Source of the DNA: a virus
Lineage: Duplodnaviria; Caudoviricetes
Direction: 5' to 3' (one strand)
DNA: 64,000 nt
Virus record (IMG/VR): IMGVR_UViG_3300032167_000106
Span: 4,424-68,423 of that record
Shown here: positions 8,445 to 59,360 of the stretch, one piece after another
Numbering within the stretch: the stretch's first letter is position 1
Layout: every line of letters starts with the position of its first letter
Program-made: the position numbers and the translations under genes
Notes under the pieces: model-generated
Database searches by the model: none
What the model saw: the letters and a program-made list of their open reading frames with translations, nothing else
Told to the model about the DNA's origin: nothing

Positions 8445-8509
8445 GAGCCAACACAGCGAACCCGGACATACACTCCATCATTAGGCTCCGCTCTATCAGC
8501 TCCATTCTG
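8445..8509 (+). repeat. Intergenic repeat family A, copy 1
   Basis: GAGCCAACACAGCGAACCCGGACATACACTCCATCATTAGG...ATCAGCTCCATT aligns with the 59281 copy. Confidence 0.7.
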
Positions 8510-8527
8510 TTTGTAGGAGGTGGAAAC

Positions 8528-9049
8528 TTGAGTAAATATACCTTGTACCGGATATATTACGGCGACGACATCGTCTACATAGGTAGGACGAAGCAACCGT
8601 TGCAGAACCGTATCCGTGGGCATCTGTTCGCAAAGCCGATGCACAGAACCATTGCTATCAGTCAGGTGTCGAAGATCGAATACGCAGAGTTCCAGACCGA
8701 AGCGGATATGAACCTGTACGAGATCTACTTCATACTGAAGGTGAAACCTCCGTTAAATGTCGATGATAAGACACGGGACGAGCTGACGGTCAGCCTTCCG
8801 GATGTGGAGTGGAAACGGTGGAGGACGCACCTTTGGGAGAAATGGAAGGATGAGATCCTGCACCGGGAAACCGAGTACGATAAGATGAAGCGAAGGTATC
8901 ACGAGATACCGGAAGCCAAGAGCGTTCTGCGGTCGATGTATGAAATGGGAGAAATCGACGAGAGCGAACTACGGCGAGGTCTTAGGGAGCTCGACAAGGA
9001 ACGCAACATCCTGTACGACAAGATGCGTGGCAATCCACAGCTTTGGTAA
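8528..9049 (+). CDS. GIY-YIG nuclease family protein
   Basis: YTLYRIYY...VYIGRTKQPLQNRIRGH...E; TTG start after GGAGGT. Confidence 0.85.
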   Translation: MSKYTLYRIYYGDDIVYIGRTKQPLQNRIRGHLFAKPMHRTIAISQVSKIEYAEFQTEADMNLYEIYFILKVKPPLNVDDKTRDELTVSLPDVEWKRWRTHLWEKWKDEILHRETEYDKMKRRYHEIPEAKSVLRSMYEMGEIDESELRRGLRELDKERNILYDKMRGNPQLW

Positions 9050-9056
9050 GATGAAG

Positions 9057-9094
9057 AAGACGGAGACCGAGGGAACTCGATCTCCGTCTTTTGT
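9057..9094. terminator. Terminator between convergent genes
   Basis: AAGACGGAGA...TCTCCGTCTT-TTG hairpin. Confidence 0.75.
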
Positions 9095-9098
9095 TGCT

Positions 9099-10112
9099 TC
9101 AGGGGTTGAGCGTATGGTAAAGGGCATCAGATGCCTTCTCATTGGAGCACATGAACTGGATGTTCAGGCCACTGGGGGAGGAAATGTGGATGTTGCCGTA
9201 TTTCATCACCGGGTACTGCCGATTGTTTGCATAACGGCGATCAGGAGAGCCGTCGTTGTTTGCGTATGCCCAGACCTGCTTCACCAGCTCGGAGTCCCGG
9301 GGGACGGGGCCGGTCTCCAAGAAGCCGATGGCAGTGATGTCGATCTTTGCTTCGTTGTAGTCGATGGCACCGAGCTTTCCCTTGTTGAATACGAGGATCC
9401 GATCGGGCATTATGGCGAAGCGGCAGTTTTGTAAGGTGAATACAACAGGCTTGATATTTGTCCGGAGATACCAAGGCAGCTTGCCTCCGGACTTGACCTT
9501 GACGGTCGAAACGGAGTGCTCGATGCCGGCGTTCGTCCGGGTATCCTGGGCCTTGGCGTTTGCGGTGATCTCCTGCAAGGACTGACTGGATGCAACGGCT
9601 CTCCAGGCGGCGGATAGCTTGTTCCATTTCGCTTGCTCTACATCGTCGAACTCGTGCTCAATGTAGTTGCGGCTCAGGATGAACAAGGCAGCACAGGCAG
9701 CGACGCAGATGTAGAAGAAGACCATACCGACTTGAGAGCTTAGGGCAGTCAGGATCACGGCAGCAATGCGGACGATGTTGGCGAACTTGATCTGCTTGAA
9801 CAGCTCCTCGTAGGCTCCGGAACGCAGCTTGTCGATGTCAGCGGATTTGACCTGCTCGACATCGGTGTATCCTGCGTAGGGATCTACCGGCTCTACCTGT
9901 GCAGCAGTCCTGGAGGATCCTCTGTGTGGACCGTGTTCGTCTACATAGCTGATGCCGGTGCCGGGTAGGGACACCGTCTGGCGGGTGCGACCATCTGCTG
10001 TCTTGGTGATGGTGTAACCTTTGACGCCCCAGCTGTAACCGATACCCTTCGTACTCAGGTTTACCCTGAAACCTCCACCGAGCCGTATGCTTTTCCTGTA
10101 TCTAAAGCCCAT
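9099..10112 (-). CDS. DUF4236 domain membrane protein (moron)
   Basis: MGFRYRKSIRLGGGFRVNLSTKGIGYSWG...SLPGTGISY; two TM helices; RBS GGAGGT before ATG 10112. Confidence 0.85.
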   Translation of the reverse strand: MGFRYRKSIRLGGGFRVNLSTKGIGYSWGVKGYTITKTADGRTRQTVSLPGTGISYVDEHGPHRGSSRTAAQVEPVDPYAGYTDVEQVKSADIDKLRSGAYEELFKQIKFANIVRIAAVILTALSSQVGMVFFYICVAACAALFILSRNYIEHEFDDVEQAKWNKLSAAWRAVASSQSLQEITANAKAQDTRTNAGIEHSVSTVKVKSGGKLPWYLRTNIKPVVFTLQNCRFAIMPDRILVFNKGKLGAIDYNEAKIDITAIGFLETGPVPRDSELVKQVWAYANNDGSPDRRYANNRQYPVMKYGNIHISSPSGLNIQFMCSNEKASDALYHTLNP

Positions 10113-10148
10113 AAGTATACCTCCGTATGGCTGGAATTGATAAGATTT

Positions 10149-10177
10149 ATTGTACCAAGGCAGATTTTGGGTGTCAA
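10149..10177 (-). promoter_or_regulatory. Consensus sigma-A promoter of the DUF4236 gene
   Basis: TTGACA-17 nt-TACAAT on the minus strand. Confidence 0.85.
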
Positions 10178-10200
10178 CGAACATCTGGGTAACAGAAATT

Positions 10201-10285
10201 ACCGAATACAGCGTTTTCTGCGGATCTCAGCAATACTTACCTCATTCGGACATCGGCAATCAGCTCCAAACTGTTCGCTTACAGG
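10201..10285 (+). repeat. Intergenic repeat family A, copy 2
   Basis: CCGAATACAGCG...AGCAATACTTACCTCATTCGG...CGGCAATCAGCTCCAAACTGTTCGC. Confidence 0.85.
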
Positions 10286-10392
10286 ACACATCTTGTCTGC
10301 AAGAAGGGCACGGATTTTGAAGTCGATCAGGTGCGTTTGGTAAACGGAAACGAGGACGGAGAAAAATATTTTCGGAAATCACGAAATTACTA

Positions 10393-10420
10393 TTGACACC
10401 GGAGGTAGGTATGTTAAAGT
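10393..10420 (+). promoter_or_regulatory. Repeated phage promoter P2
   Basis: TTGACA-CCGGAGGTAGGTATGT-TAAAGT, 16-nt spacer. Confidence 0.8.
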
Positions 10421-10465
10421 ATAGTTAAGGAAGAAATTCCAGACCAGTATTAGGAGGAACCCGCA

Positions 10466-10840
10466 ATGAAAGAAACGATGATTACCCCTGATGGATTGAA
10501 GCTGACCGCCAAATATCGTGCGGTCTATCAGAACCGCAATATGAAAGCCGAAGGTCGCTGTATGTGCGTCAGCAACCCGAAGAAGCAGGGTCAGGGCTTG
10601 GCAGCGTCACAGCTGTTCGACACACCGGAGGAGGCAAAGGCTGAACTGGTGAAGCTGATCCGGAAATACAACAAGGGTGCCCGGATCGAGACCACCGCTT
10701 GCGGTATGATCGGCATTGATCTCGTTATCAACGAGGAAGATGCAAAGTATATGGAGATCGTCTACTGGGAGATCGAGAAGCAGTGGCGTAGCAACTGGGA
10801 AGTCGTGGACAGCCCGGAACACCCCGCTAAATCCGAATAA
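10466..10840 (+). CDS. Hypothetical protein, first gene after P2
   Basis: RBS AGGAGG. Confidence 0.75.
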   Translation: MKETMITPDGLKLTAKYRAVYQNRNMKAEGRCMCVSNPKKQGQGLAASQLFDTPEEAKAELVKLIRKYNKGARIETTACGMIGIDLVINEEDAKYMEIVYWEIEKQWRSNWEVVDSPEHPAKSE

Positions 10841-10961
10841 ACCAGCGGCACGAGGCGTAAATGAAAAAGACCTAAATCTACATACCCCGAATAAAAGTGG
10901 CTCCCAGGGGCGGCAAACGCCCTTGGGTTGCCAATCGGTAAACAGAAAGGAAGCAGCGGTA

Positions 10962-11219
10962 ATGACGAAGAAGCAGATGGAAGCCTTGAAACCCGGCGAC
11001 ATCGTAGTCGAAAAGGCGACAGGCGACCAGTTTAAGTTCGTGAACCTGGCAGAAGTGAAAGATGTAAAGTTCCTGCCGGGACGAGTAGATTTCACCAACC
11101 CGAGAAAAGAGCTCGCCGTCGAACTGATCCCTGGGTTTGAGTATTCCAGAAAGATGTATCCAGGCGGAAAGTATTTCTACTTCAAGCATACACAGATGGC
11201 GGTGAAGGAGGAGCAATGA
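10962..11219 (+). CDS. Hypothetical protein
   Basis: RBS AAAGGAAG, ATG 10962. Confidence 0.7.
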   Translation: MTKKQMEALKPGDIVVEKATGDQFKFVNLAEVKDVKFLPGRVDFTNPRKELAVELIPGFEYSRKMYPGGKYFYFKHTQMAVKEEQ

Positions 11220-11602
11220 ACAAGTACGAGAAGATCTACAATGAAGCTGCCAGAAACGGCGGAAATCCAAAGTGGATGAACACCTGCATCAGGCCGCTTG
11301 CGGCTGACCTTGAAGAACTGACCGGACTGAAAGCGGAAGTGAGTGGTCCTTACGGCCTCCGGGCAGAGTGTGTTATCTACCTGAACAAGGATGGCGGAGA
11401 AGGCAATCGGAAGTACCTGGTCCTGACACCGGACTTCTATCACAAGGATAACCATATTGAAATCCAGTTTTTCTACGATACGGGCGAAACGGATGAGAGA
11501 TACCCGGCGAACTCCTTGGGCGATTACAACGGATTCAACAATGTGTCGGCAAGGCTTCCGGATACCCTTGAAGAAATTGCGGCACTGCTACGAACCTACT
11601 AA
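11216..11602 (+). CDS. Hypothetical protein
   Basis: RBS AAGGAGG, ATGA overlap. Confidence 0.75.
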   Translation: MNKYEKIYNEAARNGGNPKWMNTCIRPLAADLEELTGLKAEVSGPYGLRAECVIYLNKDGGEGNRKYLVLTPDFYHKDNHIEIQFFYDTGETDERYPANSLGDYNGFNNVSARLPDTLEEIAALLRTY

Positions 11603-11614
11603 GGAGGCGAAGAT

Positions 11615-11821
11615 ATGAGACTGAAAGTTAATGACACCAACGAGTTCAACCTGACACTGGATCTGAATGTCGACTATGAGAATGAGCGTATCACCGCAGT
11701 TGTTCACTTCTGGAATAAGCTGCAACACCAGACAACGACCTGGGAGTACGCAGCAAACGAGTTCGATCAGGCATTGGCGACATACCGCCAGCTCGAAAAG
11801 ACCTACTTTGGTGGCAAATAG
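11615..11821 (+). CDS. Hypothetical protein
   Basis: RBS AAGGAGG. Confidence 0.7.
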   Translation: MRLKVNDTNEFNLTLDLNVDYENERITAVVHFWNKLQHQTTTWEYAANEFDQALATYRQLEKTYFGGK

Positions 11822-11832
11822 GAGGTAAGGCT

Positions 11833-12021
11833 ATGTACAAAATTTGGTTCCGTTACATCAAGGGCGGCAAGGTCGTATCCGAAGGCCAGTCGTACAATAG
11901 CTACGAAAGAAAGTGCGATGCGACTCGGGTTGCGAAGAAGCAGTTCACCGATCTTTCGGAAGAAACTACCTGCGAGTGGGTGGTTGCCCGTGAGTACCCT
12001 TGGGAAGATAAGGAGGTTTAG
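11833..12021 (+). CDS. Hypothetical protein
   Basis: RBS GGAGGT. Confidence 0.7.
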   Translation: MYKIWFRYIKGGKVVSEGQSYNSYERKCDATRVAKKQFTDLSEETTCEWVVAREYPWEDKEV

Positions 12022-12023
12022 AA

Positions 12024-12212
12024 ATGCAAGAATGGGCATACGAGAAAGCGAAGATGGCTGTCGAAGATAATGAGTGCAATGTAGAGGAGATCTACCACGG
12101 CATTGCTTTCCTCTACCACACAGACATTATCAGCCACGAACAGTATAAGAACCTGATGAAGCTGTTCGATGAGAAGCACTACGGGTACATGGTGGGGGCG
12201 AGCTACGAATGA
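12024..12212 (+). CDS. Hypothetical protein
   Basis: RBS AGGAGGT. Confidence 0.7.
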   Translation: MQEWAYEKAKMAVEDNECNVEEIYHGIAFLYHTDIISHEQYKNLMKLFDEKHYGYMVGASYE

Positions 12213-12553
12213 AAAGTCTGAAGAAGCGGTTGATCCAGAAAGCCGAGGAGCTCGACTGGAATGTAACGGTTGAGAAAAAGGAATGGACATTCCAACAGCA
12301 CTCGCCAGCCGGTGAGGATTTCTTCTTCTATATCACCGTGGAGAACCCGAAGGATCTGTGGCGTGAAGTGCGTAGATATGCAAACGACTTCGACCCCGAT
12401 GAACACATCGAGATGTGGGTTGAAGCCAAGCATAACGGCAGAGAAGGCATCCCCAGTATCCGTGAGCTTGTCGAAGACGCAGACGAAATCGACAAGATGC
12501 TGGATGCACTGGCAGATGCTCTGTACGAGGTAACCGAGGAGGGAAAAGAATGA
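12209..12553 (+). CDS. Hypothetical protein
   Basis: ATGA overlap; SPAGEDF motif. Confidence 0.75.
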   Translation: MKSLKKRLIQKAEELDWNVTVEKKEWTFQQHSPAGEDFFFYITVENPKDLWREVRRYANDFDPDEHIEMWVEAKHNGREGIPSIRELVEDADEIDKMLDALADALYEVTEEGKE

Positions 12554-12861
12554 GCAACGAGTTCAAGAACACCTGCGTGAAATCCACGCAGATCTATTCG
12601 CCGCAGGCGTTCGTGGAAGCGGTGACGGGATATTGTTACTGCTTCAATCACGAGGATACGATAAAGGAGATCGAGCAGAAGCTGGAACGGCACTGCTCCC
12701 AGACCCTTTGGAACTACCCGATCACGGAGATCGAGCACATTGTTGAGAACGGGCTTAGCGTGGTGCTGGTGGATGTAACCGGTATGTACGGCGGTAGCGA
12801 GATGGTTCGGATGTACCGGTGGTTCGAGGTGCCCGAAGGTTTTGAGGAGGGCGGAGAATGA
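12550..12861 (+). CDS. Hypothetical protein
   Basis: ATGA overlap. Confidence 0.7.
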   Translation: MSNEFKNTCVKSTQIYSPQAFVEAVTGYCYCFNHEDTIKEIEQKLERHCSQTLWNYPITEIEHIVENGLSVVLVDVTGMYGGSEMVRMYRWFEVPEGFEEGGE

Positions 12862-13373
12862 TCGTTGGTACTAAAGTCTGCCCCGAATGTCGCTACTATG
12901 TAAGCGTGAATGTCCAGTTCAACAAAGACGGCCAACCGTTTTGGGTTTGTCCGCACTGCGGCAAGGTCAACAAGGAGCATAACTGGTATGAGTATGTCAG
13001 CCACAAGGAGGCTATCGAGATCATCGAGCACCGTGGCCGGCGTGGCTTGTTTGTAGAGAACACCGGTTCCAAGTTCGTCGGCATCGATAATTCGACCGGT
13101 GATGCCTGGACTGAGGAGTTCGCAAGCATTACAGAGTGCTTGCGATGGTTGGCCGGGGAACATAAGGCAGCCATCGAGCAGAACCGGCGGAAAGATGGAT
13201 ATGTTACCGGCGGCGGTCCTGCTGAGGATGTTGAGCTCTGCCTGCACCGGTGCCTTAGCTGCGGCCATACCTGGTACGAGGACTGCAATGCGGAGAAGAA
13301 CCCGGGCTGGTGCCCCGGATGCGGCAAGGAATTGAAAAGAAAGGCAGCGTGGTACGGAAATGACAAAGGATGA
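12858..13373 (+). CDS. Protein with N- and C-terminal zinc ribbons
   Basis: CPEC...CPHC and CLSC...CPGC. Confidence 0.7.
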   Translation: MIVGTKVCPECRYYVSVNVQFNKDGQPFWVCPHCGKVNKEHNWYEYVSHKEAIEIIEHRGRRGLFVENTGSKFVGIDNSTGDAWTEEFASITECLRWLAGEHKAAIEQNRRKDGYVTGGGPAEDVELCLHRCLSCGHTWYEDCNAEKNPGWCPGCGKELKRKAAWYGNDKG

Positions 13374-13770
13374 ATTGAGAGAATGTTTCCACCAAGGGTT
13401 TACGCTTGAATGGGCGTTACCGCCTACGCAGGGGCAGGAGTGCCTGATCTACAAGGCGGAGCAGTTTAGAACGGACGATACGATCATCTACATCCCGGAT
13501 ATGACCCTGAACAACATCACGGTGTTCTCGGTGCCGGTAGATGAAGATGTTGACTACACCCTGAACCGTTGCTATACCGGTGCCGATTTTGTTGAGCTCT
13601 GTGAGGGCGACGAAGCTCTTGCCTACCGGTTGTTCTGTTACTGCGACTGGCAGCATCCCAGTTCTGCGTTCCCCGAAGTCGATTATGACGACGAGGAGGA
13701 CAAGGCGTGGGTGAAGCAAGCCTACGAGACTGCAAAGAAAGAAGGTAGAGTGTATGTTAAAGCTCAGTGA
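13360..13770 (+). CDS. Hypothetical protein
   Basis: ORF track; overlapping stop and start. Confidence 0.7.
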   Translation: MTKDELRECFHQGFTLEWALPPTQGQECLIYKAEQFRTDDTIIYIPDMTLNNITVFSVPVDEDVDYTLNRCYTGADFVELCEGDEALAYRLFCYCDWQHPSSAFPEVDYDDEEDKAWVKQAYETAKKEGRVYVKAQ

Positions 13771-15100: not shown

Positions 15101-15286
15101 ATGGTGAAGAAGGTTAAGGACTTCTTGTTGATGGTGCTGGCTACCCTGATAGCCCTGCCGTTCTTGATTATTGGATTTGTACGATGGCTCGTTCTTCCGT
15201 CGCCTGACGATTGCAAGGGCTGCCCGAAGGCAGGAGAAAACTGCGGCGACTGCAAGAGTCACCCAAGGAATTTTCCGGACTGGTAA
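15101..15286 (+). CDS. Small membrane protein with Cys-rich tail
   Basis: TM helix then DCKGCP...NCGDC. Confidence 0.65.
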   Translation: MVKKVKDFLLMVLATLIALPFLIIGFVRWLVLPSPDDCKGCPKAGENCGDCKSHPRNFPDW

Positions 15287-15360
15287 TGTCCGTAGGAGCC
15301 AAAACTGCGGATGCTGACATACCTACACTCATCCGGAACCCGGCAAATTGCTCCATCAGG
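15285..15360 (+). repeat. Intergenic repeat family A, copy 3
   Basis: AATGTCCG...GAGCCAAAAC...CATACCTACACTCATCCGGAACCCGGCAAATTGCTCCAT. Confidence 0.8.
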
Positions 15361-15430
15361 CAATTCGGGTTCCGTTTGTCAGCGAATACGAATACTTTTG
15401 AAAATATTTTGAAAAAATCCGTAATTCTTA

Positions 15431-18203: not shown

Positions 18204-18500
18204 ATGCAAGTTGCAACCGGTCATTATGTGAATGTTTTCGATGTGATGGGAGCTGATGTGCTCCTTATCCTGAACGAGCCGAACGGTGCACCGCTGCCCG
18301 AGGAGGTCGGGATGCTTGAAGCGGTGATGGCGGGGGCTATCAGGGGTCATGTAGGTGCCAACGGGCAGCAGATGGTAGCCATCCTCAATGAGGCGGTTGA
18401 GCATACCAAGTGCGAATGTATCGCCTATGGCTTCCAGATCATCGTTCGTTATTTGCCCCGCATCAGTGCGGCAGAATACAGCAATTTTCAGGATGAATAG
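18204..18500 (+). CDS. Hypothetical protein
   Basis: ATG 18204 after GAGGAGG. Confidence 0.65.
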   Translation: MQVATGHYVNVFDVMGADVLLILNEPNGAPLPEEVGMLEAVMAGAIRGHVGANGQQMVAILNEAVEHTKCECIAYGFQIIVRYLPRISAAEYSNFQDE

Positions 18501-18555
18501 CAATACCTACATCATTTGAAACCCGGCAAACAGTAGGAAACTGTTCGCCGACAGA
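18499..18555 (+). repeat. Intergenic repeat family A, copy 4 (5'-shortened)
   Basis: AGCAATACCTACATCATTTGAAACCCGGCAAACAG...AAACTGTTCGC. Confidence 0.8.
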
Positions 18556-18584: not shown

Positions 18585-19118
18585 GTGAAGGCAGAATTTC
18601 TCAGCATAGCTGATAAACGACGAATTGTACTGCTGTCAGCCAGTATCAAGGCGAAGCGGAAGCAGTACGACGAGCAGGAGTGGCACTTGGTCAGCGACCA
18701 GGTTCAGATCACCGTTAAGGATTTCGGCAGCCTCGGTATCGAAGTGAACGGAATGTACCAGAGCGGTAACTTGAGTGTCGATTTCTATGAGCAGATCAAC
18801 GGCAACTGGAAGGTTTGCTGGAGGTTTATTCACAACTCCGGAAGCCGTGAGACCCTCGAAAGTGCCATTGAGCACAACATCGACCTCCTGCTTTGCAAGA
18901 AGCACAAGGATGAGCTGAACCAGAAGCGTAGAAAGTACCGAAAGGGAAGGCCTATCAAGACCCTCGACGAGCTTGCCAATGAGGAGTTCGTATACCTGAA
19001 CGACAAGATCACGCACTGGGGTTGGTTTATGAGCTGGCAGCTCAAGATGGCTCTGGATATGATCGCCCGTGGTGCAATTTGCTACGCAATCCGGAAGGAG
19101 GACGACGAGGATGAATGA
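18585..19118 (+). CDS. Hypothetical protein
   Basis: GTG start after AAGGAGG. Confidence 0.7.
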   Translation: MKAEFLSIADKRRIVLLSASIKAKRKQYDEQEWHLVSDQVQITVKDFGSLGIEVNGMYQSGNLSVDFYEQINGNWKVCWRFIHNSGSRETLESAIEHNIDLLLCKKHKDELNQKRRKYRKGRPIKTLDELANEEFVYLNDKITHWGWFMSWQLKMALDMIARGAICYAIRKEDDEDE

Positions 19119-29729: not shown

Positions 29730-30071
29730 ATGGCAAGAGGTCGTCAACAAAGATGGGTCTGTATGGACTGCAAGGGTGAGTTTTCGGTTCAAGGAAATAC
29801 TCCCCGGCTTTGCTGTTCCTGCGGATCTGGCAATATTGGCAGAGCACCCAGCTATGAGCTTGCCGTTAATTTTGCGGAGAAACGAAAAGAACTGGGTGCC
29901 ATCTGCCTGGAGCTGAACCCGGCCTACGAAAAGGCTATGGGATTGAAAGAGCAGTACGACAAGGTGATGGCGTACTGGAAGCAGCAGAGGAGTCGTGGAT
30001 ACATCACGGCAGAAGAATACGATGTCCTGGCATCCTGTTTTGTCGGATACAAGTCGAAAGATCGGCAGTAA
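29730..30071 (+). CDS. Zinc-ribbon plus coiled-coil protein
   Basis: CMDC...CCSCGS; RBS GAGGT. Confidence 0.7.
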   Translation: MARGRQQRWVCMDCKGEFSVQGNTPRLCCSCGSGNIGRAPSYELAVNFAEKRKELGAICLELNPAYEKAMGLKEQYDKVMAYWKQQRSRGYITAEEYDVLASCFVGYKSKDRQ

Positions 30072-30073
30072 CA

Positions 30074-30130
30074 CCCGAATACAGCGATTTCCACGGATCG
30101 TAGCAATACCTATATCATTCGGTAAATTTC
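30074..30130 (+). repeat. Intergenic repeat family A, copy 5
   Basis: CCCGAATACAGCGATTTCCACGGATCGTAGCAATACCTATATCATTCGG. Confidence 0.85.
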
Positions 30131-30213
30131 CAGCGGCATAGGAGCTGGATTTTTATAGCAGACCAGTTACCAAACGGATATGCTGGCAGAACACAACGGA
30201 AAGGTGGAAGCGA

Positions 30214-50570: not shown

Positions 50571-51740
50571 ATGACTAAGGATGTAAAGATCTTCGCCAAG
50601 ACAATCGAAGACGAAGCCCGTGAGCAGATTGAAAGGCTTGCAGACCATCCGGTAAGTGATGGAAGCAAGATCCGGGTAATGCCTGATGTTCACGCTGGTG
50701 CAGGTTGCACCATTGGAACGACGATGACCATAACCGATAGGATCTGCCCGAACCTTGTAGGTGTAGACATCGGCTGCGGTATGCTGGCTGTGAGTCTGGG
50801 AGTAAAGAACATTGACTTTGCCAAGCTCGACAGCGTCATCCGATGGAATGTTCCTTCCGGCTTCAACATCCACCCGACGGCGAAGGCGTTCTTCAATCTC
50901 GACGACTTGAAATGTCCGACTGCTGATAAAGTTCGGGCGATCCGGAGCCTTGGCACCTTGGGTGGAGGCAACCACTTCATAGAGGTGAACAGAGGCCGGG
51001 ACGGATACCTCTGGCTCGTCATCCACTCCGGAAGCCGGCATCTCGGCCTGGAGGTAGCGGGATAATACCAGGATCTTGCGTGGAAGACGATGTCTCAGCC
51101 GGGACAGGAGGAGATGGCCGAGCTGATCGCACGGTACAAGGCAGAAGGCAGGCAGAAAGAAATCGCAGATGCCCTGGCTGCCCTGAAAGCCAAGAAACAG
51201 GACTGCGGACCCAAGGATCTGGCGTACCTGACCGGCGATGCAATGGCTGACTATCTGCACGATATGGGCATTGTCCAGCGATTTGCAGACAAGAACCGGA
51301 TGACAATCGCCGAAGCCATCCTGAAAGGGCTTGGCCTTGGCTGGGGACGGTTTTTCACCACGACCCACAACTACATCGATTTGGAGGAAAAGATCCTGCG
51401 GAAGGGTGCTGTGGCATCCTACCGGGGTGAACAGCTCCTGATCCCGATGAATATGCGGGACGGCTCCCTTCTGTGTGAGGGCAAGGGCAATCCGGACTGG
51501 AACTGCTCGGCTCCCCACGGTGCAGGACGGCTGATGTCTCGGGCGAAGGCGAGGGACACGCTCACAATGGGCGAGTACAAGGCGGCAATGGAGAAGGTTT
51601 ATACCACCTGCGTCAGCTACGATACCATCGACGAGGCACCGGCGGCCTACAAGAAAATGAGCGAGATCATCGAGTGCATTGAACCGACCTGCAAGATCGT
51701 AGATGTACTCAAGCCGGTATACAATTTCAAGGCATCCTAA
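50571..51740 (+). pseudogene. rtcB: RtcB RNA ligase interrupted by one in-frame TAA (51063-51065)
   Basis: MPDVHAG, VGVDIGCG, TLGGGNHF, HSGSR, then TAA, then THNY, RKGA, HGAGR, DEAP.AYK in the same frame. Confidence 0.9.
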
Positions 51741-51751
51741 GGAGGTCCATT

Positions 51752-52126
51752 ATGGGTAAGAACAAGAAAGGCAAGGGCGTATCAATCCCGAAAGGTAGAA
51801 ATGGCTACCGTGAACGGGAGAAGACGAAGATCGACATCTTCCGGACGGCGGAGAAGGATACGCAGATCCAGTATATGACGGATACTCTTGTCCTGACTCT
51901 GAATGACCCTGCTATAATGGGCAAGGATGTGTTCGGCAAGAAGCGGCTCCTGAAGATCATCGAAGCCTGGGGCAAAAAGTACGACGAGTTTCACGCAGTT
52001 TTTGAAAACAACGATGAGACCGACTACTACCAGATGAAGCTGGATAAATGCCTGAGGCAGATCTTCGGTGATGATATGGAGAATTTTGGAGCGAGATACC
52101 CTTGGATTAAGGACCAGACATTCTAA
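51752..52126 (+). CDS. Hypothetical protein
   Basis: RBS AAGGAGGT. Confidence 0.75.
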   Translation: MGKNKKGKGVSIPKGRNGYREREKTKIDIFRTAEKDTQIQYMTDTLVLTLNDPAIMGKDVFGKKRLLKIIEAWGKKYDEFHAVFENNDETDYYQMKLDKCLRQIFGDDMENFGARYPWIKDQTF

Positions 52127-52163: not shown

Positions 52164-52658
52164 ATGGAAACGGAAAAGTTGTTTGATGCTGACTCGGTCA
52201 AGGAATGGCTCGAAGACTATGTCCTGGCAGAGGAAGACATCGACGGTGAAATTGAGCGGCTCGAATACTTTGTATCCAAGATGACCAGCCTCGGCTCTCA
52301 GAATATGGATGGGATGCCCAGAGCCACAAACGCTTCCACAGACCGAATGGCCGAGATGCTTGCCCGGAAGGAGGAGCTTGAAGGATCTATCCGGGAGTCA
52401 GTCCGGAAGCAGGCAGAGGTCAGAAAGAAAATCGAGGCGGTTGTCCGGAAACTCCGGAAGGTAGAGCGAAGATCCGTGATCCGGTTGAAATACCTCGACC
52501 GTACTGAATGGGACGATGTGCTCGAAGTGATGTACGGCAAGAGGGATGACTTCGACGATAGGTACGATACATACCGTCGGGCGATGTACCGGCATCACGA
52601 GGACGCTCTTGCAGAAATGGCCAGGGTGATGAACCTAATGGCAACGCAGGAAGTTTGA
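52164..52658 (+). CDS. DUF1492 / RinA-ArpU-like late transcriptional regulator
   Basis: Coiled coil then ERSVIRLKYL...WDDV...HEDAL; end of the replication module. Confidence 0.7.
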   Translation: METEKLFDADSVKEWLEDYVLAEEDIDGEIERLEYFVSKMTSLGSQNMDGMPRATNASTDRMAEMLARKEELEGSIRESVRKQAEVRKKIEAVVRKLRKVERRSVIRLKYLDRTEWDDVLEVMYGKRDDFDDRYDTYRRAMYRHHEDALAEMARVMNLMATQEV

Positions 52659-52662
52659 AATA

Positions 52663-52748
52663 CCCGAATACAGCGGTTTCCAGACCAAGAAGCAATACCC
52701 TCTATCATCCGGATAATTTCTATCCGATCTATCAGCCAATTTTGTAGG
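52663..52748 (+). repeat. Intergenic repeat family A, copy 6
   Basis: CCCGAATACAGCGGTTTC...AAGCAATACCCTCTATCATCCGG...ATCAGCCAATTTTG. Confidence 0.85.
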
Positions 52749-52762: not shown

Positions 52763-52803
52763 AAAAGGAGCAGGCGAGGAGAAATACCTGGCCTGCTCTT
52801 TTG
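52763..52803 (+). terminator. Intrinsic terminator after the replication operon
   Basis: GAGCAGGC...GCCTGCTC-TTTT. Confidence 0.7.
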
Positions 52804-52858: not shown

Positions 52859-52886
52859 TTGACTTAGGTGGTAGGTAAGTTAAGAT
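52859..52886 (+). promoter_or_regulatory. Repeated phage promoter P6
   Basis: TTGACT-TAGGTGGTAGGTAAGT-TAAGAT. Confidence 0.85.
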
Positions 52887-53693: not shown

Positions 53694-53930
53694 ATGTTCG
53701 ATAAGAAGACCTCAGGCAGCATGAAGTATTCGGATCTGCCGCCGAAGTACCAGCATCAGGCGAGGTGCTGGGCGGTAGATGCCTGGAATGAGCTGTACTC
53801 GGAACAGGGCTTGCCACTGATCGACGGAGCGGCCCCAGAAGTAGAACAGCTCCTGGCCGATTGGGAGTTTGAGATCGTAAGCGGCAGTTACGAACCCGGT
53901 GTTAGATACGAAAGATTGGAGCGGATTTGA
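53694..53930 (+). CDS. Hypothetical protein
   Basis: ORF track. Confidence 0.65.
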   Translation: MFDKKTSGSMKYSDLPPKYQHQARCWAVDAWNELYSEQGLPLIDGAAPEVEQLLADWEFEIVSGSYEPGVRYERLERI

Positions 53931-54196
53931 TGAAGAAGTTAGTAGATCAGGACTGGAGAGAGGCGAGTGTAGCCTGCTCCGTATTGTCCGTTCTTAAATC
54001 GGAGGGGATGGAGCCTGTTGTGAAAGCGATACAGGATAAGCTCCCCGCCACCGCCGAAGCCTTGCTGATGGAGATCGAAGCAGATCACGCAGCGACAATG
54101 CAGGAGTACACGGCGGCAGAAAATCGTTACATTGATATGGCCATCGAGGAGTGCTGGAAGCGAGTCGAGCGGCTGTACGAAGAACAGAAAGGATGA
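53930..54196 (+). CDS. Hypothetical protein
   Basis: TGATG overlap. Confidence 0.65.
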   Translation: MKKLVDQDWREASVACSVLSVLKSEGMEPVVKAIQDKLPATAEALLMEIEADHAATMQEYTAAENRYIDMAIEECWKRVERLYEEQKG

Positions 54197-54201
54197 ACTG
54201 T

Positions 54202-54660
54202 ATGAAATTTTTGACAGACAGGCAAGAGATTGCGAAGGCAATGAACTTCGGAAAGTATCCGGTGCTCTACATCGACCGTGATAATAAGAAGTACGATTCG
54301 CCTGAACACCCGAGCGACTTTTGTATCGGCAGTAAGTGCCGGCTCGATTGGGAGCACAAGAATCCACGATACGCAGATATGACTGCCCGATGCGAGCTGT
54401 ATTACAGCAACGGCAGGTATCACCTGAGCCAGGGAGCCGGTTGCCTGCACGCTGATTTCGGCAGACACGATGTCCTTGAGATGGTCGAGTGGGCACGGGT
54501 GCCCCTGGTACGCTGCGGCCAGACTGTCATCGTAGTCGAAGATTTCACCAAGCAGAAGCTTTGCAAGGTTCGGGTGATGAAGATCGCTGACCACAAGGAT
54601 TTGAACTGTTCGACCGTGACATCTTTGGAAGACATTGAGGAGGAAAAATATGAACCCTGA
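54202..54660 (+). CDS. Hypothetical protein
   Basis: RBS AAAGGA. Confidence 0.7.
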   Translation: MKFLTDRQEIAKAMNFGKYPVLYIDRDNKKYDSPEHPSDFCIGSKCRLDWEHKNPRYADMTARCELYYSNGRYHLSQGAGCLHADFGRHDVLEMVEWARVPLVRCGQTVIVVEDFTKQKLCKVRVMKIADHKDLNCSTVTSLEDIEEEKYEP

Positions 54661-55006
54661 GAGAATTGCCGCCATCGAAGCGGCTTGGGAGAAGATCAAG
54701 GTATTCTGCAAGAAATACGAAGGAGCCTGCGTGGATGACATCCAGGTGCGGTTCCAGTCCGACGGATACCATTGGGTAGAGTTCGGAGTAACACCGATGG
54801 GTGTACCGTATATCAATTTTGCCGGCCACAATTATGGATCACGGTCGGTTTCCTCTGACTGGATCGGGCATCCCAGACAGAAGGAGTATAGGATGGACGC
54901 CCGGTACAACTATATGGAGAAGGTCATCAAAAGTTGGCCTGGGATCAAAAAGGCAATCGAGAGGAAAGTCGAGGAAGAAAATCGGCTGTTCAACTTTGAA
55001 CCTTGA
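54650..55006 (+). CDS. Hypothetical protein
   Basis: RBS GAGGAGG. Confidence 0.7.
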   Translation: MNPERIAAIEAAWEKIKVFCKKYEGACVDDIQVRFQSDGYHWVEFGVTPMGVPYINFAGHNYGSRSVSSDWIGHPRQKEYRMDARYNYMEKVIKSWPGIKKAIERKVEEENRLFNFEP

Positions 55007-55018
55007 GGGGTGGATGAA

Positions 55019-55255
55019 ATGTTCAAGTTCGTTAAACCATTCCTGGTCGAAGTGGAGGAAGTGGTAAGAAAGAAAGTCGTGGTATATGCAGAGGTGGAGG
55101 AAGATGCCGCTGCCCTTGCTGTGAAAATGATAAAGCAAGGGGTTGTTGCGGTCACTGATGAGCCTGCATCGTATACCTGCAGATCCGTCGTAGACTTTAC
55201 GCCTGAAAACGCATCCAGGTGGTATCCCCGTTACGGGATGGAGGTGAGCAGATGA
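55019..55255 (+). CDS. DpnD/PcfM-like small protein
   Basis: FLVEVEEVVRKKVVVYAEVEEDA. Confidence 0.6.
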   Translation: MFKFVKPFLVEVEEVVRKKVVVYAEVEEDAAALAVKMIKQGVVAVTDEPASYTCRSVVDFTPENASRWYPRYGMEVSR

Positions 55256-56100
55256 AGATCCTGTCTTGCGGTGCTGGTATGCAGTCCACCGCTCTGGCCC
55301 TGATGAGCTGTGAAAATGCCTTGGCTGCCCGGAAAGGGTGGGAGATCCCGCATCCGGAAGTCCCGATCTACGATATTGTCATCTTCTGCGATCTCGGCTT
55401 GGAGCCGTCGTGGGTGATGCGGCAATGGTTGTTCATTGAGAGAGCCTGCGACTCGGCAGGCATCCGCCACGAGATGCTTGACACAGATCTGTACGGTCAT
55501 ATTATGGAGAACTTCGGCGAACGCCGAACCGTCAGTGTACCGTGGTGGACTCTGGGTGATGATGGAAAGAAATCTAAGATGCCCAGGAACTGCACAATCG
55601 ACTTTAAGGTTGAGATGATCTCCAAATACATCCGATGGGAAGTCCTCGGCTACAAGAAAGGACAGCGTCTCAAAGACCACGATAAGAAAGCCCACGAGAT
55701 GCACATGGGCTTTTCCAAGGAGGAAGAACGGCGGTGTAAGGAGAGCCCGAACCCGATGTTTATCAACAAGTTCCCGCTCTGCGTTATGGGCTGGACCCGA
55801 GCTGAGTCGTATGCGTACTGTCTGGATGTGTGGGGCCTTGACACCAAGGCTTCCGCCTGCTCGTTCTGCCCGTTCCACCAGAATTACTTCTACAAGTACC
55901 TGAAGGAAAACCACCCGGAAGAATATGCCGCTCTCGTCGAGGTGGACGAGCTCCTGCGGGACAAAAACCCGAAGCCACCGATGGACTCGGATCTGTTCAT
56001 TTCCCGGAGCCGCAAGCGGCTGGAGGATCTCACAGACGAGGACTGCAATGATGCGGTATGCTTTGAATACTGCGGCAAGCAGATCTGGAATGGATTTTAG
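55252..56100 (+). CDS. PAPS-reductase-like (adenine nucleotide alpha hydrolase) protein
   Basis: PP-loop-like ILSCGAGMQST, IFCDLG.E, CT..FK, MGFS..E, SACSFCPF. Confidence 0.8.
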   Translation: MKILSCGAGMQSTALALMSCENALAARKGWEIPHPEVPIYDIVIFCDLGLEPSWVMRQWLFIERACDSAGIRHEMLDTDLYGHIMENFGERRTVSVPWWTLGDDGKKSKMPRNCTIDFKVEMISKYIRWEVLGYKKGQRLKDHDKKAHEMHMGFSKEEERRCKESPNPMFINKFPLCVMGWTRAESYAYCLDVWGLDTKASACSFCPFHQNYFYKYLKENHPEEYAALVEVDELLRDKNPKPPMDSDLFISRSRKRLEDLTDEDCNDAVCFEYCGKQIWNGF

Positions 56101-56112
56101 GAGGTGAAAGCA

Positions 56113-56400
56113 ATGGAAAAGAATTGCCCTTGCAGGATGTGCCTGAACGCAACGGTAGACGGTGATCTCCGCCACGACAACGATCTGTCCTACATAGGGA
56201 TCGGAGATTGCAACCCCGGGCTCAGGCTTATGTTCAAAACTGGAGATGGCAGGCCGACAGAGATCCTCGTTGAGAGATGGGATAAAAAGAACGGGTGGCA
56301 GACCGTTGGTGTGTATCGACCGGCGTATTGCCCCAACTGTGGCAGGCTCTTGGTCGAGAACCTGAAGAACGGAGGACGGAGGTACGGAAATGGCCAGTAA
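56113..56400 (+). CDS. Small zinc-finger protein
   Basis: CPCRMC...YCPNCGR. Confidence 0.7.
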   Translation: MEKNCPCRMCLNATVDGDLRHDNDLSYIGIGDCNPGLRLMFKTGDGRPTEILVERWDKKNGWQTVGVYRPAYCPNCGRLLVENLKNGGRRYGNGQ

Positions 56401-56545
56401 GAAAACAGCCAAGATGAGCAACTGCAAGTGTCCCAAGTGCGGGGCGAAGCTGGTGGTTACAGAGTTTACTGAATACTGCCGGCGGTGCGGGTACAGCAAA
56501 CACCGGGAGCCCAGCAACCTGACAAAGCGACTATATGGATTTTAG
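56390..56545 (+). CDS. Small zinc-finger protein (51 aa)
   Basis: Read by hand: CKCPKCG...CRRCG. Confidence 0.6.
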   Translation: MASKKTAKMSNCKCPKCGAKLVVTEFTEYCRRCGYSKHREPSNLTKRLYGF

Positions 56546-56557
56546 GAGGCAGCGGCG

Positions 56558-56950
56558 ATGAATAGATTGACTCAACGCATAGGTGTCAATGGTGAGGCGA
56601 TCCTCATTAGCGATATGGAGGAAAAGTTCACTGCTGAGGAGCTGATCGACATCTTGCTTGCTCGGTTGGCAGAGTATGAAGATACCGGATACAGTCCGAA
56701 TGGTGTTATCGCTCTTGCCGAGAAGGTGAAGAAAGGCACGATCGAAGACAAGCCATCCGCCACCGCAAAGACGGATGGGAGCCAGGATGAACTGGCACCG
56801 TGTCCTTTCTGCGGCAGGGAGCCTTATATGCAGATCAGACCTACCGCACGAAAGACCAAGATTTATTCCGTGAAGTGTCAATGTGGTGCAATGCACCGCT
56901 TTGTTGACAGGCGATACAAAGCGGTAGACCAATGGAATGGGAGGGTGTGA
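56558..56950 (+). CDS. Protein with C-terminal Lar (restriction alleviation)-like domain
   Basis: LAPCPFCG...VKCQCGA...AVDQWNGR. Confidence 0.75.
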   Translation: MNRLTQRIGVNGEAILISDMEEKFTAEELIDILLARLAEYEDTGYSPNGVIALAEKVKKGTIEDKPSATAKTDGSQDELAPCPFCGREPYMQIRPTARKTKIYSVKCQCGAMHRFVDRRYKAVDQWNGRV

Positions 56951-56951
56951 A

Positions 56952-57329
56952 ATGAAGGTTAGTCGTTCCACTGAATTGGGTAGCTATTTTTCTTTTCCGG
57001 AAAACATAAAGTCGGAGTCCGATGGCCTGCGAGAAAGAATAACACAACAGATTGCGGTGAAGATGGTGGATAATTATGAGTCCGCCGTCGTTGAGGAAAT
57101 CGCTATGAGTGCGAGAGCAGAGGGCATTACTGACTGCGCTGTGCTGAACAAGCAGGCGATCATTGATGCGTTGAAAAAAGCGGTTCCTACAAAACCGAAC
57201 AATTCCGAAACGAGAGCACCTCTGTGCCCGTTCTGCAATCGGTTCATTGACAGAAATGAGCATAAGCACGGAAATATCGATATTCCGCACTGTAAATGGT
57301 GCGGACAGGCTTTGAACTGGGAGGGGTGA
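56952..57329 (+). CDS. Hypothetical protein with C-terminal zinc ribbon
   Basis: CPFC...HCKWCGQAL. Confidence 0.7.
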   Translation: MKVSRSTELGSYFSFPENIKSESDGLRERITQQIAVKMVDNYESAVVEEIAMSARAEGITDCAVLNKQAIIDALKKAVPTKPNNSETRAPLCPFCNRFIDRNEHKHGNIDIPHCKWCGQALNWEG

Positions 57330-57331
57330 AG

Positions 57332-57496
57332 ATGGAGCACAGAAGGGATCCTCGCATTGATGAGGACGAGACCATATTCGACGATAACGGGACGGAGATT
57401 TCGCCCCTGGATGATGACTATGAATATTGGAAGTCCGTGCAGGAGAGCCTGAATGATCTGTTGTCCGACGACTACTGTAAATACGATCACGATTAG
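57332..57496 (+). CDS. Small acidic protein
   Basis: RBS GAGGGGTG. Confidence 0.55.
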   Translation: MEHRRDPRIDEDETIFDDNGTEISPLDDDYEYWKSVQESLNDLLSDDYCKYDHD

Positions 57497-57507
57497 GAGG
57501 AAAGGAA

Positions 57508-57903
57508 ATGAAATTGAAATGTCTGCACTGCCAGAATGAATTTGATGGCACAATCGAAAAGGACGACCTCGGGTGGCATAGTTCCTGCCCAAAGTGCGGA
57601 GGTAGCTTCGATGTAGATGTTCCCGAAGGGAAGATCGTAGTTGCCTTTACAGATCCGCTTGACGGAGAAGACGAGCCCTATAAGTCGTTCGATCAAGCGG
57701 TTCCCACTTGGAACATCCACGGGTACTACGCTTTCGATAGCGTGGAGGAGTTCCTGCAGAAGTGGAAGGAGTTTGTCGATGAGCCCTACGGTATGTGGTA
57801 CTGGGTGATCGACGAAGGCAAGGTGATATGCAGTGGTGCCGTTGACCCGTATGACATCGAGATATTCCAGGAACACTGGGGACTGAAAGAGGAGGAAGAC
57901 TGA
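57508..57903 (+). CDS. Hypothetical protein with N-terminal zinc ribbon
   Basis: CLHC...CPKCG. Confidence 0.7.
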   Translation: MKLKCLHCQNEFDGTIEKDDLGWHSSCPKCGGSFDVDVPEGKIVVAFTDPLDGEDEPYKSFDQAVPTWNIHGYYAFDSVEEFLQKWKEFVDEPYGMWYWVIDEGKVICSGAVDPYDIEIFQEHWGLKEEED

Positions 57904-58184
57904 TGAAAAAATGGAAGTCCGGAATAAATAGGCACGAGCTGTTCTTGCAGGGCGTTTCTGTTTGCGTATTGCACTTTGGACCTGACTGCGGCTACTACTG
58001 TGAGGCACAGATCGGGAACGGCATCCGTAACGAGAGCTTCGGTTTCTGCACGGAGTACGAAGCGAAGATCAGTGCCGAGGCTTGGTATGCAGCACAGATG
58101 AGAGCCTGTTATCGGTTTTACAGGCGGTGTGCAACGGAATGTCTGGACAGACTGAGGGACTTGGGGGTATCGGAGAAGGTATGA
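57903..58184 (+). CDS. Hypothetical protein
   Basis: TGATG overlap. Confidence 0.65.
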   Translation: MKKWKSGINRHELFLQGVSVCVLHFGPDCGYYCEAQIGNGIRNESFGFCTEYEAKISAEAWYAAQMRACYRFYRRCATECLDRLRDLGVSEKV

Positions 58185-58423
58185 AGAAGTATGTTTGCAC
58201 AGCAGGCTTCGCTCTGGAGCAGTTCGACGATGACGGGTTCACTACTGAAAAGTGGATGACAGTCGAAGAAGGCGATATATGGACTGAAGATGACACCGCC
58301 TTCCGCATGGTTGGAGGCGACGACACAGTCAGACTGGTACGGAAGAAAGAGAACTCCGAAGGCTGGATGGAGATCACGAAGGAGACCCTGGCCACACACT
58401 TTGCCCTGGTCGAAAATACTTAG
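58181..58423 (+). CDS. Hypothetical protein
   Basis: ATGA overlap, ATG 58181. Confidence 0.65.
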   Translation: MKKYVCTAGFALEQFDDDGFTTEKWMTVEEGDIWTEDDTAFRMVGGDDTVRLVRKKENSEGWMEITKETLATHFALVENT

Positions 58424-58442
58424 CCGGCGACCGCCTTTCTTA

Positions 58443-58471
58443 TTGACTTTTCACGGTACTGTGATATAATA
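58443..58471 (+). promoter_or_regulatory. Consensus sigma-A promoter of the DUF4160-DUF2442 pair
   Basis: TTGACT-17 nt-TATAAT. Confidence 0.88.
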
Positions 58472-58492
58472 AAAGAAAAGGTGGTAGCACAG

Positions 58493-58747
58493 ATGCCGAC
58501 AATTTCTCGATTTTATGGACTTATCATTCGCATGAACCTCCGCAGCCGGGAACATAATCCCCCTCATATCCACGCAGAATACGGGGAATATGAAGCCTTA
58601 ATCGACCTGCGGGATTTATCGGTGGTCCGGGGCAAACTCCCAAATCGTGCCTTGGAAATGACCCTTGAGTGGACTTCCCAAAATCAGCAAAAACTGCTTG
58701 AAATGTGGGAAACCTCCCAAATCACAAAACTGCCCCCGCTCGTCTGA
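58493..58747 (+). CDS. DUF4160 family protein (putative TA toxin)
   Basis: MPTISRFYGLIIRM...EHNPPHIHAEYGEY...LPNRALEMTLEW. Confidence 0.9.
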   Translation: MPTISRFYGLIIRMNLRSREHNPPHIHAEYGEYEALIDLRDLSVVRGKLPNRALEMTLEWTSQNQQKLLEMWETSQITKLPPLV

Positions 58748-58772
58748 GCGGGGCATCCGACAGGAGGAGCTT

Positions 58773-59228
58773 ATGGAAAACTTTGTCGAATATCCGATCA
58801 GGACGCTGACCTTGGTTAAGGACTACGAGGTGATCGCCCACTTCAAGAATGGCGATGTGAAGCGGTATGATTTCCGGAAGATCATCGACCAGCTGGAACC
58901 GCTGAGGATCTTGGCGGAAGACTACGAGCTGTTCCAGAAAATCCATCTGTCTGCCGGCGGATACAGCATCATCTGGAACGACGACCTTGACCTCGAAGCT
59001 GAGGAGCTGTGGTACGAAGGTGAAGATGTTGACTCCCCGTTCCGGGATCTTATGGCTTTCCGTGATGCGGAAGAAACCTGGGGCTTGAAACCGAGTGCCC
59101 TCCGGAAGGCTGTTCAGTACAAGCGGTTCACAGTCGGCGAAGATGTGATGCACTTCGGTAAGCAGTGGGTGATAACCAAGAAGGCTATGGTACGGGAATA
59201 CGGCCCCGAACCCAGGCAAGCTGAATAA
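58773..59228 (+). CDS. DUF2442 domain plus C-terminal HTH (putative antitoxin)
   Basis: VIAHFKNGDVKRYDF...GGYSIIWNDDLDL; WGL..SALRKAV...KQWVITK. Confidence 0.85.
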   Translation: MENFVEYPIRTLTLVKDYEVIAHFKNGDVKRYDFRKIIDQLEPLRILAEDYELFQKIHLSAGGYSIIWNDDLDLEAEELWYEGEDVDSPFRDLMAFRDAEETWGLKPSALRKAVQYKRFTVGEDVMHFGKQWVITKKAMVREYGPEPRQAE

Positions 59229-59232
59229 GACG

Positions 59233-59261
59233 AGCGGCTCTCGAAAGAGGGCCGCTTTTTT
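59233..59261 (+). terminator. Intrinsic terminator
   Basis: AGCGGCTCTC-GAAA-GAGGGCCGCT-TTTTT. Confidence 0.88.
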
Positions 59262-59267
59262 ATGCCC

Positions 59268-59360
59268 AAATGTCCGACTCAAGCCAATACCAGAACCCGA
59301 AGCAATACCCTACATCATTCGGCACCCGGCAATCAGCTCCATTTGCCAATTTTGCAGACC
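59268..59360 (+). repeat. Intergenic repeat family A, copy 7
   Basis: AATGTCCG...AAGCCAATACC...AAGCAATACCCTACATCATTCGGCACCCGGCAATCAGCTCCATTTGCCAATTTTG. Confidence 0.85.

Follow-up and report, generated by a model that had tools for sequence, protein, structure and literature searches.

An undescribed ~85-base signal at gene-block junctions of uncultured human-gut phages, possibly read as unfolded sense RNA

Why should one intergenic repeat recur seven times, always in the same orientation, at the gene-block junctions of a single tailed phage? The window analyzed here is a stretch of 64,000 nucleotides (positions 4,424 to 68,423 of IMG/VR record IMGVR_UViG_3300032167_000106), and all coordinates below refer to it. 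The original prediction described seven copies and considered a recombination site, an antitermination or processing RNA, or a single-strand entry promoter. We built a profile from the seven copies and searched the whole 68,423-base record with it. Exactly seven matches were returned, all on the plus strand, with E between 1e-15 and 1e-19, and the next best match in the record stood at E ~0.8, which bears out a seven-copy family of one orientation. The start of the fourth copy was corrected from 18499 to 18467, about 30 nt earlier. The copies, with the gene that directly follows the first of them and the parts of the fifth, are as follows.

8433–8517, plus strand: element copy 1, of a divergent subtype, 3 nt past a stop codon and running into the ribosome-binding site of a GIY-YIG gene
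8528–9049, plus strand: GIY-YIG homing-endonuclease-like gene, directly after copy 1
10197–10282, plus strand: element copy 2, 110 nt 5' of a GGTAGG-type promoter and abutting the promoter of a minus-strand DUF4236 gene
15286–15368, plus strand: element copy 3; a strong hairpin makes up its 3' half and a short T-rich stretch comes next, with a GGTAGG-type promoter 63 nt on
18467–18552, plus strand: element copy 4, in which a conserved TAG (18498–18500) terminates the upstream frame; the next gene starts at 18585
30070–30156, plus strand: element copy 5, of the window's copies the most like those of relatives
30101–30103, 30104–30120, 30127–30145 and 30129–30154, within copy 5: TAG, G-free run, second conserved box, and hairpin with T-run
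52659–52746, plus strand: element copy 6, immediately 3' of the DUF1492 late-regulator gene, which is the ancestral position
59269–59356, plus strand: element copy 7, about 5 nt past the T-run of a terminator and about 30 nt 5' of the late-promoter module

A TnpB/IS605-type element around 9099–10184 was also considered and rejected; the gene there encodes a DUF4236 protein.

The family extends well beyond this phage. At least 15 further IMG/VR records carry the element, with one to five copies each and on a single strand per record, as do 28 metagenome loci, several of which are labelled human gut. Three subtypes of the element can occur in one genome. Relatives with an element-free DUF1492 gene have no copy anywhere in their records, and Faecalibacterium phage FP_Brigit has none. 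The element model found no match in 151 genomes of one order, the DUF1492 profile found none in 399 genomes of one class, and a pattern scan of species genomes gave chance matches only, among the screened loci of the matches listed. The original prediction had allowed for a known Rfam family; none in Rfam 15 matched at gathering score over the whole window, and at E up to 5 only chance-level matches appeared, far under the gathering scores. The seven repeats are a real, undescribed ~85-base signal common to a clade of uncultured human-gut phages.

The sequence of the element is strikingly strand-asymmetric. Among 36 non-redundant copies, the variable columns contain 8.9% G and 36% C, as opposed to 26% G and 22% C in other plus-strand intergenic DNA. 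Every one of these copies has a G-free run of 15–20 nt, whereas only 4% of background windows reach 17 nt. Fixed boxes containing G alternate with G-free spacers, and the boxes persist between phages whose flanking DNA no longer aligns. The sense core folds with −7.2 kcal/mol, compared with −12.6 kcal/mol for background windows and −12.2 kcal/mol for its own antisense, which folds at background level only. Selection keeps the sense strand unfolded. Single-base indels between copies exclude a shared reading frame, and the element was dismissed as a coding sequence.

A folded RNA was likewise dismissed. RNAalifold returned no consensus structure from the seven copies or from the 36, on either strand, and both candidate stems were weak or without signal. 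The CCGAAT/ATTCGG stem proposed originally is poorly supported: 70% of cells pair, with few compensatory changes, and the pairing is broken in closely related copies. The candidate stem at the second box averaged 3.1 bp as opposed to 2.9 bp with shuffled partners. Frpo-type single-strand promoters are long hairpins that mimic a duplex promoter. Because that type needs an extensive hairpin, and the element is unfolded on the sense strand and folds antisense only to the background level, the suggestion of a Frpo-like entry promoter was rejected. No sigma-70 promoter lies inside any copy, and this candidate was dropped as well.

The proposed recombination site for the serine integrase or RecT did not find support as such, as the element has no dyad symmetry and breakpoints are not enriched at it. 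Among seven related phages, 22 ends of nucleotide homology fell at the element where 20.7 were expected. In a search for attC and serine-integrase att features, the only inverted repeat was a poorly kept 6-nt pair about 45 nt apart, and an attC-type foldable bottom strand is not conserved among the copies. Inspection of the aligned flanks by eye revealed neither terminal inverted repeats nor target-site duplications of the MITE type.

What the copies do share is their position at the ends of gene blocks. Across the family, the gap between the upstream stop codon and the element is 0–10 nt, or the frame ends inside the element at a conserved TAG. Five of the window's copies had been placed near a stop codon; four indeed start 2–4 nt past one (8431–8433, 15284–15286, 30069–30071 and 52656–52658), but in copy 4 the stop lies inside the element. 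Copy 2 has no plus-strand gene ahead of it, and copy 7 is preceded by a terminator. By a crude home-made predictor, used without a matched intergenic control, a strong intrinsic terminator adjoins at least 26 of the 36 non-redundant copies. The same crude predictor places it 5–50 nt downstream in at least 17 of the 36, a nut-type layout with the stop codon 0–10 nt before or inside the element, and ending 4–10 nt upstream in nine. Copies 1, 2 and 4 have no convincing terminator nearby. The original statement that the element has no U-tract is right only in part: copy 5 ends in its hairpin and T-run, and copy 3 combines its hairpin with the T-rich stretch; at copy 6 the terminator is separate and lies 3' of the element. 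The order of terminator and then element, as at copy 7, recurs in at least eight non-redundant copies of relatives. In about a dozen copies the end of the element lies in or next to a ribosome-binding site, among them copies of relatives in the order terminator, element, gene. GGTAGG-type promoters follow three of the window's copies at 63–113 nt, where 70–110 nt had been stated, and copy 7 precedes the putative late promoter, as originally described; promoters of the GGTAGG type occur with and without the element.

The surroundings of copies 6 and 7 comprise the ancestral site of the family, two candidate partners and the late promoter.

51752–52126, plus strand: gene for a 124-aa protein of no known family, with a Lys/Arg-rich N-terminal tail
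52164–52658, plus strand: DUF1492 (LtrB-family) late-regulator gene, directly 5' of copy 6
52767–52803, plus strand: intrinsic terminator, 20 nt past copy 6
52859–52886: GGTAGG-type promoter, after that terminator
59232–59263, plus strand: intrinsic terminator, directly 5' of copy 7
59380–59536, plus strand: Ltr-type late-promoter module, distinct from the element and located ahead of the ParB-like gene; made up of short direct repeats, extended −10 (59456–59463), leader and built-in terminator (59504–59536)

The element is oldest at the 3' end of the late-regulator gene (DUF1492, LtrB-type); this ancestral site marks the close of the early operon, immediately past the regulator genes. In relatives, the last 10 codons and the stop codon of the DUF1492 gene lie within the element. 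The first 31 nt of the element correspond to the tail of the DUF1492 frame in those phages. The DUF1492 fold was modelled confidently, with very weak best matches in the PDB, to ECF sigma factors, and a sequence search of the PDB was uninformative. The 124-aa gene is found directly upstream in 15 of 16 element-bearing loci and in none of five loci without a detected element, which makes its basic-tailed product a candidate partner by co-occurrence, an association that may reflect linkage alone because gene and element lie less than 1 kb apart. The structure model of this protein was poor (pLDDT 52), too poor for a fold search.

Our preferred reading, at a probability of about 0.4, is a linear RNA landing pad through which termination or read-through at operon junctions would be controlled, more like a nut site than a rut site. 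The element would act in cis within the transcript, in the form of single-stranded sense RNA, of which some 85 nt, linear and unfolded, could receive a protein or protein complex. This pad would be exposed where translation of the upstream gene block has just ended, mostly beside an intrinsic terminator, and would set whether RNA polymerase stops or reads through at the junction, comparable to lambda nutR beside tR1, though without a boxB hairpin. Its likeliest partner would be a co-inherited phage protein, either the 124-aa basic-tailed protein or the DUF1492 regulator. Whereas the family and its positions, strand asymmetry, missing structure and co-occurrences are observations, the action as RNA, the involvement of termination and the choice of partner are inferences. 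An antitermination or processing RNA, one of the original suggestions, survives as the best class of explanation, given the sense-strand constraint, the lack of structure and the terminators adjoining most copies. A narrower version, which we regard as doubtful, would make the element an RNA loading site for an undescribed kind of hairpin-independent, phage-encoded termination control by the 124-aa protein, with or without DUF1492, in Faecalibacterium-like hosts mostly lacking Rho. If true, such a hairpin-independent system would couple or insulate successive operons.

The strand asymmetry and the lack of structure would also suit a sense RNA with another role, namely stabilizing or processing of 3' ends, perhaps as 3'-UTR-derived small RNAs that share the terminator, or ribosome standby. 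The arrangement of element and terminator resembles the layout of 3'-derived small RNAs, and the copies ending at ribosome-binding sites would suit standby. However, no single role fits both the element-terminator and the terminator-element-gene orders, and there is no conserved hairpin for processing of the RNase III type; we consider this explanation unlikely.

The element could instead be a duplex-DNA binding block for the DUF1492 (Ltr) regulator, copied to seven sites as a late regulon. Many relatives have two occurrences, some 40 nt apart, of an internal direct repeat of ~17 nt, and in the commoner subtype conserved G clusters recur every ~10 nt, about once per helical turn, a spacing also compatible with a protein on one face of the DNA duplex. 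The element would then correspond to the repeat region that staphylococcal and enterococcal phages have immediately past their ltr genes. This region, distal to rinA, ltrC and arpU, lies at the end of the late-regulator gene and contains direct repeats (Quiles-Puchalt et al. 2013, PMC3753634). The likeness to it comprises about 60–85 nt at the end of a regulator gene, direct repeats, then a terminator and then a promoter; the element differs in being multi-copy, strand-asymmetric and conserved across diverged regulators, and the published Ltr target is better fitted by the repeat and promoter module before the ParB-like gene.

That single-copy module, and not the element, is the true Ltr-type late promoter. 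Its three to four short direct repeats, spaced by ~11 nt, abut an extended −10 with no good −35, and these repeats change from phage to phage along with the DUF1492 proteins, in contrast to the element, which is conserved between phages with DUF1492 proteins 32–50% identical. Moreover, the element is missing at this promoter in four of six phages, three subtypes within one genome fit poorly with one regulator, and GGTAGG-type promoters do without the element as well. Nor would a duplex-DNA site account for the G avoidance or the unfolded sense strand. A DUF1492 binding block is also unlikely.

A rut site for Rho loading, as a back-up to intrinsic terminators and an insulator between adjacent operons, would agree with ~80 nt of C-rich, G-poor, unstructured and untranslated RNA right after stop codons, followed by hairpins that could pause polymerase. 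We nevertheless consider it quite improbable. Among isolated phages, the nearest ones infect Faecalibacterium, with 50% identity to FP_Brigit in the portal protein and 28% identity to FP_Lagaffe in DUF1492. In a sample of 61 genomes from the order of a Ruminococcaceae genome, an order that may not be the host's and that presumably includes Faecalibacterium, Rho turned up in just two. The phage probably infects a Gram-positive anaerobe, of a kind that seldom carries Rho. Rut sites are not known to be conserved in sequence, unlike the fixed boxes kept here between phages with non-aligning flanks.

Cargo genes do insert beside the element. The GIY-YIG family that follows copy 1 also follows an element copy in two other phage lineages, three in total, and in one contig its gene is placed precisely between element and terminator, with a sister contig lacking the gene. 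The GIY-YIG homing endonuclease inserts at the 3' edge of the element. As the gene can part the element from its terminator, strict adjacency of the two is not needed. In two phages, a block of 5.5–6.5 kb is flanked by two element copies. These cargo blocks and the clean presence or absence of the endonuclease gene would suit scattered relics of stacked promoter-cargo-terminator modules, partly GIY-YIG homing targets, with no function beyond the first site, but this is quite improbable, as relics should decay, yet fixed boxes and G avoidance are kept in 36 of 36 copies, and homology breakpoints are not enriched at the element.

How phages of strictly anaerobic gut Firmicutes regulate their genes has hardly been studied. 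The element offers a defined, conserved and testable cis signal, alongside two possible partners encoded nearby and a distinct late promoter that has a built-in terminator; together these mark the transcription units of a whole uncultured phage clade. If control of read-through by a linear RNA landing pad proved true, the element would be a processive or local antitermination signal of linear RNA and would explain the joint switching of long arrays of small accessory genes. As a natural landing site of a homing endonuclease, it is also useful for following cargo turnover.

Among known systems, phage T7 carries about ten co-oriented, intergenic, conserved hairpins of 60–90 nt as RNase III sites. 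The element is likewise co-oriented, intergenic and of similar length, but it has no conserved structure, its RNA being selected to stay unfolded. The stoperators of cluster A mycobacteriophages are 13–14 bp repressor sites on duplex DNA. They too form numerous asymmetric sites of one orientation that lie in short gaps between genes, along the direction of transcription, whereas the element spans ~85 nt under constraints of a single-strand type. Lambda nutR, at tR1, is untranslated sense RNA after the last stop codon of a regulatory block and before a terminator, and is partly linear (boxA, rut). No homologue of lambda N was recognized, and the element differs from nut sites in having no boxB-type hairpin and seven copies per genome as opposed to two. 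Yet it shares with nutR/tR1 an untranslated position past a stop codon and beside a terminator, co-oriented with transcription.

The window spans bases 4424-68423 of a 68,423-base virus record. A repeat search and an alignment both revealed the element family there, and a profile built from it gave exactly seven matches in the whole record, all on the + strand (E-values 1e-15 to 1e-19), with the next best match at an E-value of about 0.8. The seven same-orientation copies of the original prediction were thus all recovered, and its coordinates hold overall, except for the fourth copy, whose start moves to 18467, about 30 nt ahead of the position first given. Four of the seven copies have a stop codon 2-4 nt before their start, one comes after a terminator and one has no + strand gene ahead of it; in another, the upstream frame runs in and stops at a conserved TAG within the element.

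Features referred to in the text (window positions)
8433, 10197, 15286, 18467, 30070, 52659 and 59269, + strand: starts of the seven element copies
51752-52126: one of four carrier-only genes, encoding a protein of 124 aa whose N-terminal tail is rich in Lys and Arg
52164-52658: DUF1492 gene
about 59380-59536: late-promoter module, from comparison of homologous places in five relatives

Rfam 15 contained no match to the element at the gathering score and only chance-level matches at E-values up to 5. Relatives of the element were gathered by pattern scans, and the candidates were then screened with the profile. The family occurs in at least 15 further IMG/VR records, with one to five copies apiece that always share a strand within any one record, and in 28 metagenome loci, several labelled as human gut. 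All records and loci were condensed into a non-redundant set of 36 copies. The portal protein of one relative shares 50% identity with its counterpart in the isolated Faecalibacterium phage FP_Brigit, whose genome contains no copy of the element, and the DUF1492 protein shares 28% identity with the one encoded by another Faecalibacterium phage, FP_Lagaffe.

DUF1492 corresponds to the late-regulator family LtrB (PMC3753634), and the element overlaps or directly abuts the 3' end of its gene in this genome. Of 15 related loci identified via the DUF1492 protein, 10 have the element at the same position, as do six metagenome loci; in these loci the final ten codons of DUF1492, together with its stop codon, fall inside the element. 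Of the five loci in which no copy was detected, four have nothing downstream of DUF1492 and one has a divergent block missed by the profile; end-to-end searches of the records of four of the five found no copy anywhere. One further DUF1492 locus retains only a partial copy, and the DUF1492 protein tree is too poorly resolved to tell loss of the element from gain. In this genome and in relatives, the element at the DUF1492 end is followed by a strong terminator and then by a GGTAGG-type promoter. Such promoters were found both with and without the element: the promoter carries an A/T-rich upstream tract after DUF1492, element and terminator in the related loci L372-L374, L382 and L384 (about 3600-3700), and stands directly after the DUF1492 stop codon in one relative lacking the element. 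Across the set, a strong terminator lies 5-50 nt downstream in at least 17 of 36 copies, and a terminator T-run ends 4-10 nt upstream in at least nine of 36, both being raw counts and lower bounds, because our own predictor is a crude one that overlooked some clear examples. Where the terminator is upstream, the ribosome-binding site of the next gene is often at the 3' end of the element.

At about 85 nt, the element has variable spacers between conserved boxes, and in many relatives a unit of about 17 nt recurs once, about 40 nt further on. In the window, six of the seven copies differ from the commoner form in their 3' half, which five of them share with the copy that precedes the ParB-like gene in the closest relative; the 30070 copy alone has the commoner 3' form. 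RNAalifold found no conserved secondary structure on either strand. The six-base CCGAAT/ATTCGG stem proposed earlier is poorly supported, as 70% of cells pair with few compensatory changes and closely related copies break it. A hairpin around the second box was rejected, its pairing being no better than with shuffled partners.

The most telling sequence property of the element is its strand asymmetry. The 23 least conserved columns contain 8.9% G and 36% C, as against 26% G and 22% C elsewhere in the window's + strand intergenic DNA. All 36 copies have a G-free run of 15-20 nt, the sequence of which varies, whereas only 4% of background windows reach a 17-nt run. The sense core has a mean folding energy of -7.2 kcal/mol, compared with -12.6 for background windows and -12.2 for its own reverse complement. 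Avoidance of G on one strand at otherwise free positions is unexplained for a duplex-DNA site and fits the need for a single-stranded sense RNA.

Our favored reading, tentative at a probability of roughly 0.4, is a linear RNA signal at operon junctions. The sense RNA, kept single-stranded, would load a factor there, and the loaded factor would control whether transcription terminates or reads through. Some other RNA role ranks behind this reading, as does an Ltr-protein site on duplex DNA, which suits the position of the element but accounts neither for the strand asymmetry nor for conservation across diverged regulators. A Rho-loading (rut) site, also behind, would agree with the composition. 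However, the rho family model scored above cut-off in only two of 61 sampled genomes from the order of the Ruminococcaceae MAG G020, to which Faecalibacterium, the host genus of the nearest isolated phages, presumably belongs, and Rho was undetected in three of four Clostridia test genomes. Moreover, to our knowledge, the rut sites known so far do not preserve fixed boxes, unlike the element. Copies as mere relics likewise fall behind the linear RNA signal.

The original prediction also entertained a cassette-junction recombination site. Nucleotide-homology ends among seven related genomes were, however, not enriched at the element (22 seen, 20.7 expected). Cargo does enter beside it: in one metagenome contig a 170-aa GIY-YIG gene fills precisely the gap from the element to the terminator belonging to it (L425:2273-3300), and a sister contig with matching flanks lacks the gene (L392:9477-9700), a presence/absence polymorphism. 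In this genome a gene of that endonuclease family (8528-9049) comes directly after the 8433 copy, and in a 98-kb relative one lies between two copies. Two phages carry a 5.5-6.5 kb block with a copy on either side. The GIY-YIG gene and the 10197 copy enclose a DUF4236 gene (9099-10184), the only minus-strand gene in that stretch, with a near-consensus promoter with an extended -10 (10149-10177) and its own terminator (9057-9090).

When the gene content of element-carrying phages was compared with that of relatives without the element, four conserved genes were restricted to carriers. In 15 of 16 element-bearing loci, the gene for the 124-aa protein is the immediate upstream neighbor of DUF1492; this holds for none of the five loci lacking a detected copy. 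The protein matched no Pfam or PHROG family, its look-alikes are solely viral hypothetical proteins, and its structure model is poor. It is a possible partner of the element; given the tight linkage between the two in the genome, the co-occurrence serves as a lead and not as evidence of interaction. An RtcB RNA ligase is split over the adjacent frames 50571-51065 and 51114-51740. The first aligns with the N-terminal 84 positions of the Pfam model and the second with the C-terminal 220, leaving the central part of the domain unmatched.

Ahead of the ParB-like gene, six phages (this one and five relatives) share a single-copy late-promoter module. Three to four short direct repeats, spaced about 11 nt apart, are followed by an extended -10 that lacks a good -35, then by a short leader and, directly before the gene, by a built-in terminator. 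The repeats vary between phages, as do their DUF1492 proteins. Only this genome and its closest relative have the element in front of the module, and element and module are distinct. The built-in terminator implies that late transcription from this Ltr-type promoter needs read-through. The published Ltr target consists of direct repeats upstream of a late promoter that are bound by the regulator (PMC3753634), and the ParB-side module fits that description better than the element does.
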